DNA from: a virus
Strand: one strand, 5' to 3'
DNA length: 64,000 nt
IMG/VR virus record: IMGVR_UViG_2084038018_000013
Span: 2,341 to 66,340 of that record
The first letter of the stretch is position 1. Each line of letters starts with the position of its first letter. The notes below the pieces were generated by a model. It was not told the origin of the DNA and made no database searches. It saw only the letters and a program-made list of their open reading frames with translations. Positions 18,881 through 22,333 of the stretch are shown one piece after another. Both the position numbers and the translations under genes were made by a program.

Positions 18881-18988
18881 TCATTTGCCGGGTGCCTCCC
18901 GGTGAATTTGCCACAGTCTGCAAATCCGCAAACGTTACGTGCAACACTGACTGCTTGCCCCACCGCATAGGGGGATTCAGCCGAATGA
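18881..18988 (-). ncRNA. Structured element E1 (candidate ncRNA)
   Basis: Shares TGCCGGGTGCCTCCCGGTG, central CCGC and GCCCC(A/T)CCGC(A/T)TAGGGGGAT with E2 and E3. Confidence 0.55.
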
Positions 18989-18990
18989 TA

Positions 18991-19019
18991 AAGATATCGA
19001 TTCACTTGTGTATATTGAA
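18991..19019 (-). promoter_or_regulatory. sigma70-like promoter at the 5' end of E1
   Basis: TTCAAT-17-TATCTT. Confidence 0.4.
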
Positions 19020-19281
19020 ATTAGTACACATCTTCATTTTTGGTAGATGTATTAGAAAAACAAATAATTACATTCGAAACCATAACAGATGAAATTAGTA
19101 ATCACTTATAAATCACAGTATAAAGCATTTAAACTTATAACTGAGATTTCTCTTAGGCTTTGCTTTAAAGTCCGAGCCTCCTTGAAACGAAGACCGATTT
19201 GGTCTCCCTTCCGAAGTGTTGGATTTCAGTTCGGAAGGGAAATTTTTAAAGCACTTCACGGTCAGGGTAAACACCTAAGGT

Positions 19282-19785
19282 TCACTTTCTTAACATCTCC
19301 AGAAGGTCTTTTTCGAATGTACCTGTACTCTTGCATTCTACCGGCTTAACTTTATCATTCCCGTCCGCAGCTACGAGACCAGCTGTACCTGTAACTGTTA
19401 CTAAAACATTAGATCCCTCTCCTGCACTCCATACCTGAGTAACTACACGATAACGCTCCTGAATGTTTTGACTCTGCTTAACCTCTGAGCAATCAAGAAT
19501 AAGTGAAGCAAATTCAACATCCTCATCAATTGCTGCAATGATCCCAGTTGTTTGGTCATTTACAGCAGGAGTCATCCCCTTTTTCTGATAATAAAGTTGA
19601 ACCGCGCTGATCAGCTCATCAGGCTTGCGGTTGCCAATTTTGATTATGGAAGAAGAAGCAGACATTCCTGCCGCATCATCATTTTGCGATGTACTTTGTG
19701 TTTCAGGCCCTCCCTTAACAGGCCCATAAACGTTAATACAGCCTGTGAGAAAGAGCGGTAGTATGCAACTAACCATCTTCAACAT
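19282..19785 (-). CDS. Moron lipoprotein of unknown function
   Basis: Lipobox LTGC; AT-rich; lies between lysis genes and terS. Confidence 0.8.
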   Translation of the reverse strand: MLKMVSCILPLFLTGCINVYGPVKGGPETQSTSQNDDAAGMSASSSIIKIGNRKPDELISAVQLYYQKKGMTPAVNDQTTGIIAAIDEDVEFASLILDCSEVKQSQNIQERYRVVTQVWSAGEGSNVLVTVTGTAGLVAADGNDKVKPVECKSTGTFEKDLLEMLRK

Positions 19786-19789
19786 AGCA

Positions 19790-19864
19790 TCACCGATAGT
19801 ATAAAGTGGTACATGCTGTAAGCTGAGAACACAGAATCGCCAGTACGATAAGTTTATACTTCAT
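19790..19864 (-). CDS. 24-aa micro-lipoprotein MKYKLIVLAILCSQLTACTTLYYR
   Basis: SD AAGGAG 5 nt upstream; basic N-region, hydrophobic core, LTAC lipobox; stop 4 nt before the next ATG; below the track length cut-off. Confidence 0.7.
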   Translation of the reverse strand: MKYKLIVLAILCSQLTACTTLYYR

Positions 19865-19938
19865 TCAAACTCCTTTTTCATGATGATATTTTTATGCCTA
19901 CTCAATGAATTTTGCGTTTAACTCATACTCCTAGAAGT

Positions 19939-20157
19939 TCAAAGCTGATATCTTTGGCAGTTTGCTTGCCACGCTTTGTTATGTGTCAAGATGTCTTTCT
20001 TCGTCTGGCGGTCCATAACGTCGATATCGTGCTCGGTCAGGTAGATTGGCTTTACCCAGTCACAGGCGGTATCAACCACCACTGGGACGCTTCCACGTGT
20101 CACGCAGCTCGCGATCAACATCGTCATCAGGCATGCGGTTAACAGTCTGCTGTACAT
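19939..20157 (-). CDS. Outer-membrane spanin-like lipoprotein (Rz1-like)
   Basis: MYSRLLTACLMTMLIASC lipobox; overlaps the upstream spanin; DTAC...W..NC. Confidence 0.75.
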   Translation of the reverse strand: MYSRLLTACLMTMLIASCVTRGSVPVVVDTACDWVKPIYLTEHDIDVMDRQTKKDILTHNKAWQANCQRYQL

Positions 20158-20347
20158 TGCTGGCCTCTTTCGTTGTCTCGACCCGACGTTCTGCTGCTGC
20201 GACCGTTGCCGCTGCGTTATCTTCGGTGCGCTGCTGGTCGGCTTTCGCTTCCGCTTTTCTGGTGCCGCGAATATGGCCCAGGCCGAACGCACCGGCGATG
20301 GCAGCAATGACCGCTGCAGCGATACCAATTAAAGTTTCAAAGCCCAT
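20072..20347 (-). CDS. Inner-membrane spanin-like protein
   Basis: MGFETLIGIAAAVIAAIAGAFGLG TM followed by a coiled coil. Confidence 0.7.
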   Translation of the reverse strand: MGFETLIGIAAAVIAAIAGAFGLGHIRGTRKAEAKADQQRTEDNAAATVAAAERRVETTKEASNVQQTVNRMPDDDVDRELRDTWKRPSGG

Positions 20348-20984
20348 AGTGACCTCGCACCAATACAGATTTCGCCAGGTTAAACAGCGCGCGGCGTTTA
20401 TCCAGCCCGTTACGGCCGCCATTAATAAGCTGCGTGACGCGCTCCACGTCTCCGGAATGAAGCAGACAGCCGTGAGAGACATAGAACCATGCAGCTGAGC
20501 GAGCAGCATATTCATCCTGTTCCAGCAATTCAGGCTGGGTTACAAGGTCCAGCTTCAGCGCGTGGCCACAGTTGCGGTAATTGCTAAGCCCGGTGATTTG
20601 CTTCAGGCCGCGACCACGATATTTCCAGCCATCGCCAGCAGTTTGGTTTCCCAGGTTCTTTTTGCCCCACTCACCACCGTATACCAAATTGGCTATCGCT
20701 TTCTGATTTGCCGGTTGCGCTGCCGTTCTGCCGAGGGCGGCGGCCTGCTGTTCAGTAATGCGATGCTTGCCGAACGTAGGTACCAGGTTTCCAGCCGCAT
20801 AGTTCAGGTTTTCAACCAGCCGGTTGAACCCACCGGACTCATGCCCCATCTGTGCGATGAACATGGCCTGATTAAGCGGTGCGATGATGCCGTATTCCTT
20901 CATGGCGGAGTCGATATGCGGAAACCAGCGCGCAGCTAACTCGGCGCTTATCCCAGCCGCCTTTTGAAATTGTGATTGGTTCAT
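20337..20984 (-). CDS. Endolysin, glycoside hydrolase family 19
   Basis: AMFIAQMGHESGGF, YRGRGLKQITG, INGGRNGL. Confidence 0.93.
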   Translation of the reverse strand: MNQSQFQKAAGISAELAARWFPHIDSAMKEYGIIAPLNQAMFIAQMGHESGGFNRLVENLNYAAGNLVPTFGKHRITEQQAAALGRTAAQPANQKAIANLVYGGEWGKKNLGNQTAGDGWKYRGRGLKQITGLSNYRNCGHALKLDLVTQPELLEQDEYAARSAAWFYVSHGCLLHSGDVERVTQLINGGRNGLDKRRALFNLAKSVLVRGHYGL

Positions 20985-21259
20985 TAGTGCCTCAGATGAT
21001 CAACCAGGCGCGCAACGTTGCCTCTGACGGCCACCAGCACGGAAAGGAAAATAATATTGGCCCCAATAGTGGCCCATGAGGAATGAGGATAAATGCCACA
21101 CAGATAAGCCAGCGGCACAGCGCTGTAAGTGACCGTAATCAGCCAAGCTAAACGCGAAACCCACGGACGGTGGCGTGAATCACCACGACGATAAAACATC
21201 AGGGTAATCACCACCCCGGCGCAGAGCAGAGCGTTTAATGTTGCAGTTGGGTCATTCAT
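20984..21259 (-). CDS. Holin-family membrane protein (DUF754-like)
   Basis: Three TM segments, FYRRGDSRHRP, RGNVAR. Confidence 0.8.
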   Translation of the reverse strand: MNDPTATLNALLCAGVVITLMFYRRGDSRHRPWVSRLAWLITVTYSAVPLAYLCGIYPHSSWATIGANIIFLSVLVAVRGNVARLVDHLRH

Positions 21260-21638
21260 TACCACCTGAACCTCCCCGGCGCGTTATCAGCGCCACCAGC
21301 GAGCCGATATCCTGGTTGTTCAGGAACGTCAGGATTTTGACGGCTAATGCAGAAATAATTACGGCACCGATGGCGTCCAGAGGCTTATCACTGTAACCGG
21401 TCCAGGCAGATAACTTTGAACCCACCAGCCCGGAGCATAAGATCCCGGCGATATACGACACTATGAAATATGCCAGTCGGCGGGTTGCACTCAGCTCCGC
21501 AGCTGTGGCGATGTAGAATACGGCACCTGCAAATGCGCCAAATACCACACCATAATCGGTGCCTGTAAGCAGGCCATAGATACTGGCACCCGTCAGAGCG
21601 CCACTGGCTAAGCCAGTGCCGGAAATCGGATCGGACAT
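21252..21638 (-). CDS. Putative holin
   Basis: MSDPISGT...DYGVVFGAFAGAVFY; multiple TM segments. Confidence 0.82.
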   Translation of the reverse strand: MSDPISGTGLASGALTGASIYGLLTGTDYGVVFGAFAGAVFYIATAAELSATRRLAYFIVSYIAGILCSGLVGSKLSAWTGYSDKPLDAIGAVIISALAVKILTFLNNQDIGSLVALITRRGGSGGNE

Positions 21639-21686
21639 CGGTCCCCCTCAATGCTGTGAATCCTCTCATTAGATTTGAGGGGAAAT

Positions 21687-21711
21687 AAAAAAGGCCGCCT
21701 TGAGGCAGCCC
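21687..21711 (-). terminator. Terminator upstream of the holin
   Basis: GGGCTGCC-TCAA-GGCGGCC-T6. Confidence 0.7.
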
Positions 21712-21729
21712 GTAATGTTTGAATAGGTT

Positions 21730-21918
21730 TCAAAGAGGTGGTGGTAGTGGTCCCTCTAAAACGACGGCTTCACCGTTATGGCAAAGATCGAAGCCATGTG
21801 TCAGGTGCCAGACTCCACAGACAATCTTACCAGACAGCATGTCTTCAGTTTGACCGTGCGAGTAATAAGCAACCTGGACACATTCATTGTGTCTTATCCA
21901 ATAATATCCCTCTTTCAT
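21730..21918 (-). CDS. Small hypothetical protein MKEGYYWIRHN...
   Basis: 62-aa ORF with SD; lies between E2 and a terminator. Confidence 0.65.
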   Translation of the reverse strand: MKEGYYWIRHNECVQVAYYSHGQTEDMLSGKIVCGVWHLTHGFDLCHNGEAVVLEGPLPPPL

Positions 21919-21995
21919 AATTCACCTCTTAAATTATTTCATTAAGAAGTATATATGACTGTAAGGCATAAAGTCGTCGGCGAAATAGTTTAGGA

Positions 21996-22103
21996 TGTGA
22001 TGCCGGGTGCCTCCCGGTGACTTATCTCTGGTCATCAAAGCCGCGCGCATACCTGCATATAGCAGTTCACCAGACGCCCCACCGCATAGGGGGATTCATC
22101 ACA
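21996..22103 (-). ncRNA. Structured element E2 (candidate ncRNA/leader)
   Basis: Closing stem TGTGATG/CATCACA plus the shared hairpins. Confidence 0.6.
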
Positions 22104-22108
22104 AGCAT

Positions 22109-22138
22109 AACCTAGTCAAGAATCATTCATTTCGTCAA
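22109..22138 (-). promoter_or_regulatory. sigma70-like promoter at the 5' end of E2
   Basis: TTGACG-18-TAGGTT; predicted +1 near 22102. Confidence 0.55.
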
Positions 22139-22157
22139 TGGTTGAATATGTCAGTGC

Positions 22158-22186
22158 AAAAAAAAAGCCTGCTCGGTCGAGCAGGC
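22158..22186 (-). terminator. Terminator downstream of E3
   Basis: GCCTGCTC-GACC-GAGCAGGC-T9. Confidence 0.8.
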
Positions 22187-22216
22187 ATGAAAAGCTAAGT
22201 TGGCAATAACATATGA

Positions 22217-22333
22217 TGTGGTGCCGGGTGCCTCCCGGTGCAAATGTTTACAGCATTCATTTCCGCGTGCTGGTTGGACACTCAGGAGAAATGTCCTGCT
22301 GAATCGCCCCTCCGCTTAGGGGGATCCACCACA
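22217..22333 (-). ncRNA. Structured element E3 (candidate ncRNA)
   Basis: Closing stem TGTGGTG/CACCACA plus the shared hairpins. Confidence 0.6.

Follow-up and report, generated by a model that had tools for sequence, protein, structure and literature searches.

The window analysed here, a stretch of viral DNA of 64,000 nucleotides (nt) covering positions 2,341 to 66,340 of the IMG/VR record IMGVR_UViG_2084038018_000013, contains three dispersed elements of about 110 nt, E1, E2 and E3, each of which is a member of STnc100 (Rfam RF02076), a class of non-coding RNAs found in prophages. A cmscan search of the whole window against Rfam returned exactly three matches above the gathering score, which is 47 bits for RF02076, and all three were to this family and on the minus strand. 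E3 matched with 76.1 bits (E = 1.8e-14) over model positions 1-206 (22156-22361, minus strand), its terminator included, and E2 (69.4 bits) and E1 (58.9 bits; 18886-18979) matched in the core only. The first-pass annotation of this DNA, which was made from the letters alone, could place the elements in no family that it knew and took an Rfam match to be the sign of a known rather than a novel element. All three exceed the gathering score of RF02076, and the elements are thus not new: they belong to a catalogued family and can be annotated automatically as STnc100 copies. Among the roles offered at that stage, that of a small RNA (sRNA) family agrees with this result, as STnc100 is a catalogued family of prophage sRNAs.

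Other properties of the elements were compared with those of the family. Their core helices are kept by compensatory change, and their site, identified by Pfam and PHROG matches of the neighbouring genes, is the late region of a prophage, co-oriented with the genes for the antiterminator Q and for lysis. The full arrangement of leader, core, tail and terminator over all 206 model positions is found in E3, with the terminator at about positions 170-206. E1 and E2 differ from it: the terminator of E1 lies 70 nt off, outside the model match, and its closing stem is irregular, whereas E2 lacks one over the next 250 nt and is followed by a small open reading frame (ORF).

Core fold and covariation

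The cores occupy 18881-18988 (E1), 21996-22103 (E2) and 22217-22333 (E3) on the minus strand; the letters were checked again, and the coordinates and motifs first given for them are exact. Two blocks are common to all three when the minus strand is read, GAAU-CCCCC-U..GCGG-.GGGG and CCGGG-AGGCA-CCCGG, and most of the mean column identity of 74% falls within them. The shared hairpins are not a chance effect, as the joint two-hairpin pattern occurs three times in the window and was found on average 0.00 times in 100 dinucleotide-preserving shuffles.

From its 5' end the core consists of a closing stem P1 (6-9 bp in the homologue set), an AAU linker, P2, a linker of 2-4 nt, the 5' strand of P3, L1 (a variable loop, 13-45 nt long, that often has its own hairpin), the dinucleotide GC, P4 (5-10 bp), a single A and P5. 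P2 is CCCC/GGGG with the loop C-U-N-N-G-C-G-G-N, and P5, CCGGG-AGGCA-CCCGG, abuts the 3' strand of P1 and is stacked on P1. The loop of P4 is the 3' strand of P3, and P3 and P4 therefore form an H-type pseudoknot. This changes the earlier description in part. The internal helices that it listed do exist (GCAGUC/GACUGU in E1, UCUGGU/ACCAGA in E2 and CAGCA/UGCUG in E3), but they are not nested, since their 3' strands sit in the P4 loop. The "central CCGC" is also present, and is made up of the GC and the two opening pairs of P4.

In E3, P1 pairs 22327-22333 with 22217-22223, P2 starts from 22323, P3 pairs 22297-22301 with 22251-22255, the L1 hairpin spans 22276-22296, P4 pairs 22258-22264 with 22240-22246 with one G-G mismatch, and P5 is at 22224-22238. 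The corresponding helices of E2 are P1 at 22097-22103/21996-22002, P3 at 22069-22074 with 22027-22032, an L1 hairpin at 22053-22065, P4 at 22038-22042/22019-22023 and P5 at 22003-22017. The closing stems claimed for these two copies, UGUGAUG/CAUCACA in E2 and UGUGGUG/CACCACA in E3, were confirmed. E1 has P3 at 18949-18954 with 18913-18918, P4 at 18920-18927/18904-18911, P5 at 18888-18902 and an irregular P1, in which 18984-18988 and a UG at 18978-18979 pair with 18881-18887; the stem UCAUU/AAUGA proposed for this copy forms only if 4 nt are bulged out, and a predicted -10 hexamer overlaps it.

Covariation among the three window copies alone would be anecdotal, and its strength comes from homologues. 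Copies were gathered by pattern from viral contigs and then parsed, and 20 diverse copies were placed in a geometry-matched seed alignment. In this alignment 92.5% of the cells are paired, against 41-46% when the partners are slid, and 17 of 32 pairs are changed on both sides, including four of the six in P3 and seven of the nine in P4; none of 500 shuffles reached the observed pairing values. A covariance model (R1) built from these copies gave 82 matches in 71 sources, in which 94.6% of the cells are paired and 19 of 26 pairs are changed on both sides, the alignment in this case being fitted to the model. E3, E2 and E1 score 63.5, 86.7 and 96.5 bits with R1. The claim that the elements belong to a structured RNA family with a multi-helix junction, under selection for pairing, is thus upheld by strong covariation across 20 and 82 homologues. 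Single-sequence folding energies are unremarkable (z of -0.8, -0.75 and -2.6), because nested folding is blind to the pseudoknot; the support for the fold is comparative, not thermodynamic. When 45 copies were aligned with MAFFT alone, P3 and P4 were misaligned and RNAalifold returned no helices but P1, P2 and P5; this alignment was set aside.

That P2 and P5 did not vary in the first sample was a product of the search pattern, and one-sided scans and the covariance model were used afterwards. Divergent members then showed rare compensatory variants, namely CCUU/AAGG in P2 and CGGGG/CCCCG and CCUGG/CCAGG in P5, as well as a GAAA loop. P2 and P5 are thus genuine helices whose sequence is unusually strongly constrained. 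Loop and junction nucleotides are near-invariant across Enterobacterales, and variation between copies is concentrated in L1 and the 3' tail. The pseudoknot was found neither in the Rfam consensus shown for STnc100 nor, as a word and as far as the text was searched, in the 2026 preprint on Pas sRNAs and STnc100 that is cited below; the pairing of P3 with the P4 loop is kept in E1-E3 and in the homologues.

Any likeness to transfer RNA (tRNA) is limited to the order of stems, a closing stem of 7-8 bp with a 5-bp hairpin stacked on it. ARAGORN found no tRNA or transfer-messenger RNA (tmRNA) in the window, no Rfam family of either kind matched 18500-23500 at E values up to 1, and a tRNA or tmRNA identity was rejected on these grounds. 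Models of the hammerhead, twister, twister-sister, pistol, hatchet and hepatitis delta virus-like ribozymes likewise gave no match at E values up to 1.

Strand and unit layout

The motifs were originally written on the plus strand. The RNA is on the minus strand, however, as indicated by an excess of G-U pairs, by the terminators downstream and by co-orientation with Q and the lysis genes. In the variable helices read on the minus strand, G-U cells outnumber A-C cells by 72 to 10, and the strand that folds is therefore the late-gene strand; the intrinsic terminators that follow the elements on the minus strand agree with this.

E3 is a canonical unit of the common type, in which the core is followed by a 30-nt tail and a terminator ending in nine T residues (T9). 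The terminator (22158-22186, minus strand) has a GC-rich stem of 8 bp and starts 30 nt after P1. As in the Rfam seed, a leader hairpin precedes the core (22349-22368, minus strand; GCAUCC/GGAUGU with GCGG in the loop), and this hairpin is kept in the two closest relatives (L026 and L060). In a survey of 118 non-redundant family copies, the terminator starts at most 40 nt from P1 in 71, as in E3, and at 41-80 nt in 13; in 19 the 250 nt that follow contain none. The terminator that follows E1 (18781-18810, minus strand) is intrinsic, has a T9 tract and starts 70 nt after the core.

A consensus sigma-70 promoter is present in ten distinct upstream classes of the family, with exactly 4 nt between the end of its -10 hexamer and an 8-nt P1 window; no other -10 offset occurs more than twice. 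From this spacing, RNA of the promoter-bearing members would start inside P1. E2 has a putative weak sigma-70 promoter in the same phasing (22109-22138, minus strand; TTGACG-18 nt-TAGGTT), with a -10 that ends 4 nt before the 8-nt P1 window starting at 22104. The promoter-like site upstream of E1 (18985-19014, minus strand; TATACA-18 nt-TATCAT) is a consensus match only, and if used it would start transcription inside the 5' strand of P1, overlapping the irregular stem.

E2, with no terminator within 250 nt downstream, belongs to the terminator-less minority. It lies in the 5' leader of a small gene, orf62 (21730-21918, minus strand; phrog_1856, function unknown), 77 nt upstream of it, and an intrinsic terminator (21683-21711, minus strand) follows orf62 before the holin gene. 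Homologues of orf62 lie downstream of family copies in other loci. Cores, tails and terminators recur in differing combinations among the copies, and some IMG/VR contigs have tandem arrays of three to five copies about 170-260 nt apart, each with its own terminator (L059, 4380-5460 and 8493; L027, 1725-3241; L015, 371-982).

Several mechanical ORFs of 42-66 amino acids overlap the elements (22257-22454, 18877-19005, both minus; 22007-22198, 22238-22393 and 18892-19092, all plus). They are unlikely to be genes, because the three copies differ from one another by 4, 9 and 13 nt in the distance from P2 to P5, and because conservation follows a pairwise pattern. A relative in phage SaltyDalty carries a hypothetical-protein annotation.

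Relatives of the elements

One relative is EcOnc27, also called sRNA103, an sRNA of the Shiga toxin (Stx) phage of enterohaemorrhagic Escherichia coli O157, which binds Hfq (PMC7873438, PMC12711010). STnc100 overlaps this sRNA, which is located just downstream of stx2B (PMC12711010, PMC7873438). In strain EDL933, 11 STnc100 copies are expressed and one has been verified by northern blot (PMC5331693). The elements of the window, besides scoring above the STnc100 threshold, share with STnc100 and EcOnc27 a late-region site between Q and the lysis genes on the late-gene strand. PasD of enteropathogenic E. coli is Hfq-dependent and has many partners in data from RIL-seq, in which interacting RNAs are ligated and sequenced (PMC8550237), and it has been reported to be structurally homologous to STnc100 (Zhu, Shabalina and Storz, bioRxiv 10.64898/2026.05.13.724894); according to the same preprint, the function of Pas sRNAs has not been elucidated. 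EcOnc27 and PasD, like STnc100, are prophage sRNAs that have been detected by northern blotting. PasD1 and PasD2 resemble E1-E3, so far as the preprint's description goes, in being prophage-encoded and Hfq-dependent and in lying near Q and holin or lysozyme genes. They differ in that the authors find no BLAST link between PasD and STnc100 and describe different seed regions.

Divergent cores are also present in three prophages of E. coli K-12 MG1655 (NC_000913.3), at about 1649454-1649581 (plus strand), 1418262-1418390 (minus) and 1201261-1201383 (minus). These Qin, Rac and e14 elements keep the signature of P1, GAAU, P2 loop and P5 and score 27-37 bits with our own model, and the Qin copy has the compensatory P5 change CCUGG/CCAGG; they fall below the Rfam cut-off (28-34 bits). 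Unlike E1-E3, the Qin and Rac cores belong to early operons, where they directly follow the sRNAs DicF and KilS: one lies between dicF and dicB and the other between kilS and kilR, and both stop about 30 nt upstream of the start codon of a gene for a cell-division inhibitor, dicB or kilR, and so are leaders and not terminated sRNAs. The e14 core overlaps the annotated ORF ymfH, which may be partly spurious. The IpeX region of the K-12 prophage DLP12 was rejected as a further member, as our covariance model had no match between quuD and essD.

Two other phage RNAs occupy a comparable place. Lambda 6S RNA is the short transcript of the late promoter, located between Q and the lysis genes and intrinsically terminated. 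StxS of Stx phages is likewise a non-coding RNA between Q and the lysis genes with an intrinsic terminator, and binds Hfq. Both start at the Q-dependent late promoter itself, in contrast to E3. Here the part of the short late transcript is probably played by the two terminators that directly follow Q (22726-22780, minus strand), which are intrinsic and in tandem and are likely to be the tR'-type stop of this transcript; E3 is a separate unit about 400 nt beyond them.

Proposed role and alternatives

We consider it probable that E1-E3 are STnc100-class units of which E3, and probably E1, are terminated, Hfq-binding sRNAs that act in trans, with the core of E2 used as the leader of orf62. The proposal starts from the family membership, fold, strand, terminators and gene context observed in the window, and expression and Hfq binding are carried over from the literature on relatives. 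The elements are encoded on the late strand of a lambdoid provirus, in what would be slots for accessory genes (morons) around the lysis cassette. In E3, and probably in E1, the core, an unstructured tail and the T9 terminator would give an RNA of about 180-200 nt, which by analogy may bind Hfq through its U-tail. Such an RNA could base-pair with its targets in trans, using the variable single-stranded L1 loop and tail, which would set target specificity, and the invariant core may serve as a nuclease-resistant 5' scaffold or as a recognition domain; we infer the position of the seed and the role of the core from the distribution of variable and invariant parts. E2, with its family-type promoter and no terminator, would place its core in the 5' leader of orf62 messenger RNA (mRNA). 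In the lysogen the units would be transcribed independently and stopped at their own terminators, which would shield the holin and other lysis genes, and after induction the Q-modified polymerase would read through all unit terminators. The 71 of 118 copies with a closely spaced terminator support the proposal, as do the phased promoters of ten upstream classes and the constant position of the family between Q and the holin gene. In its favour, too, a common E. coli copy of the family is present in RNA-seq assemblies from four studies, in contigs that break at the repeated P5 block and do not show where transcripts end.

Several observations weigh against it. An sRNA that acts by base-pairing needs nothing nearly as elaborate as this pseudoknotted core of four helices, whose loops and stems are near-invariant, and a regulatory mechanism has been established for no member of the family. 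Promoter prediction gave no recognisable promoter adjoining E3, and E2 cannot be a canonical sRNA because it has no terminator. The leader position of the divergent cores in K-12 points to a role in cis. None of the RNA runs searched for this locus contains it, so that expression of E1-E3 is deduced from the relatives.

A role in cis is the alternative that fares best, although we think it rather unlikely. The core would then be a module of phage transcripts that sets RNA ends or guards them against attack by RNase E, RppH or exonucleases, or that serves as a mark for processing; it would stabilise or insulate the adjoining mRNA segments, and the terminated "sRNAs" would be by-products. Such a module would account for E2 as the leader of orf62, for the 19 of 118 copies that have no terminator within 250 nt, for the K-12 copies in the dicF-dicB and kilS-kilR intervals, and for those copies that adjoin tRNA genes. 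It also fits the clear promoters of the family, which would start transcription inside P1 and so bury the 5' end in a helix. Most copies, however, are self-contained units of promoter, core and terminator, and the relatives are abundant, bound to Hfq and have partners in trans. A simple hairpin would, moreover, be enough to protect an end, which leaves the invariant loops unexplained.

Another alternative is that the core is an aptamer with a host protein, a phage protein or a small molecule as its ligand; it would work either as a riboswitch that controls the terminator downstream or by sequestering protein, as a sponge or decoy. The complex pseudoknotted architecture, the covarying stems, the near-invariance of loop and junction nucleotides across Enterobacterales and the intrinsic terminator 20-40 nt downstream of most copies would all be expected of it. 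Even so we judge it improbable. Pairing between the core and the 5' strand of the terminator is not specific to cognate pairs, as the mean duplex energy is -11.05 kcal/mol for cognate and -10.76 kcal/mol for non-cognate combinations and the two are indistinguishable; there is thus no sign of an expression platform, and a riboswitch platform was rejected. No Rfam riboswitch family matched at E values up to 1, and no protein gene was seen to be conserved next to the elements beyond the general context of the late region.

The first-pass annotation had also listed a put-like cis antiterminator, a ribozyme and a protein sponge, and no evidence was found for any of the three. The put RNAs of phage HK022, putL and putR, are about 70 nt long and have two stem-loops in a V shape (PMC9378689). 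Put RNAs, which contain a triplex, belong to early operons, act on the zinc-binding domain of RNA polymerase and replace a protein antiterminator (PMC9378689). E1-E3 could be compared to them, as cores that bind the polymerase and carry it through downstream terminators, in that all three are upstream of intrinsic terminators on the late strand, and in that the RNA of some members starts at a promoter, as does putL. Beyond this the two systems part: the elements have about 110 nt and four helices with a pseudoknot and are found in the late region of a phage that encodes a Q antiterminator, and the relatives accumulate as RNAs of about 200 nt that end at the very terminator to be passed. Constitutive read-through into the holin genes would, in addition, kill the lysogen. 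We therefore consider a put-like function very improbable.

A function of the repeats as DNA, either as protein-binding palindromes or as blocks of identity for the exchange of modules, with an incidental RNA fold, has next to no probability: the P2 and P5 arms are nearly invariant palindromes, the lysis cassette has identical blocks of 20-22 nt on either side, and cores, tails and terminators are variously combined, but compensatory changes keep P1, P3 and P4 paired and occur in P2 and P5 of divergent members, the excess of G-U over A-C is strand-specific, and a pseudoknot is meaningless in duplex DNA.

For this window, then, the outcome is an ordinary one; the family itself deserves attention. 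Few non-coding elements of enterobacterial prophages are as common as STnc100, and one of the 11 copies in EDL933 is directly downstream of stx2B. The family binds Hfq and yet has no established mechanism. There is some chance, which we put low, that the core specifically binds a small molecule or a factor of host or phage and represents a new class of aptamer, decoy or processing signal. If this were true, phages would be attaching one core to different 3' parts, among them the tails of sRNAs and the leaders of dicB, of kilR and of small genes. Identification of what recognises the core would explain why phages keep such stacks of units between Q and the lysis genes.

Surrounding region

On the minus strand, a gene for a Q-like late antiterminator (22832-23452; DUF1133, phrog_753) is upstream of the elements and is followed by the two terminators, a non-coding stretch of about 390 nt, E3 with its T9 terminator, E2, orf62 and a further terminator. 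Then come two holins, an endolysin of family GH19 and an Rz-like spanin, which form the lysis cassette between E2 and E1 (19939-21638), and after these orf167, E1 with its T9 terminator, and the small terminase subunit. In the related IMG/VR loci examined the element is always between Q and a holin gene and on the same strand as both, and the cultured phage HK639 has the same layout, with Q, two terminators, the element, two terminators and holin. Its genome (NC_016158.1) has four annotated terminators between the Q-like and holin genes (44331-45164), and the family copy, which is unannotated, is at 44810-44923 between the second and the third.

A pattern scan of genome contigs gave family matches in many genera of Enterobacterales; matches in Streptomyces and similar genera are probably chance matches to GC-rich sequence. 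In two loci (L090 and L093) the 3' end of a tRNA gene, with a T-arm-like sequence and a terminal CCA, is about 40-110 nt upstream of a family copy, and some copies thus lie inside phage tRNA clusters.

The non-coding stretch between the post-Q terminators and E3 (22335-22725, minus strand) contains a match to isrI, an Hfq-binding RNA, at 22417-22517 (31.4 bits), and a second one at 21727-21822 (42.9 bits) overlaps the end of orf62 and its terminator; both are below the cut-off of 45 bits. Further sRNA units may be stacked in the region between Q and holin. Next to Q, a DUF968/HNH ORF (23424-23714, minus strand) covers only positions 79-171 of the 171 in the profile and is therefore 5'-truncated. 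A plus-strand terminator (18754-18770) lies between E1 and the terminase genes, back-to-back with that of E1, and this bidirectional site (18754-18810) would stop transcription from both directions.

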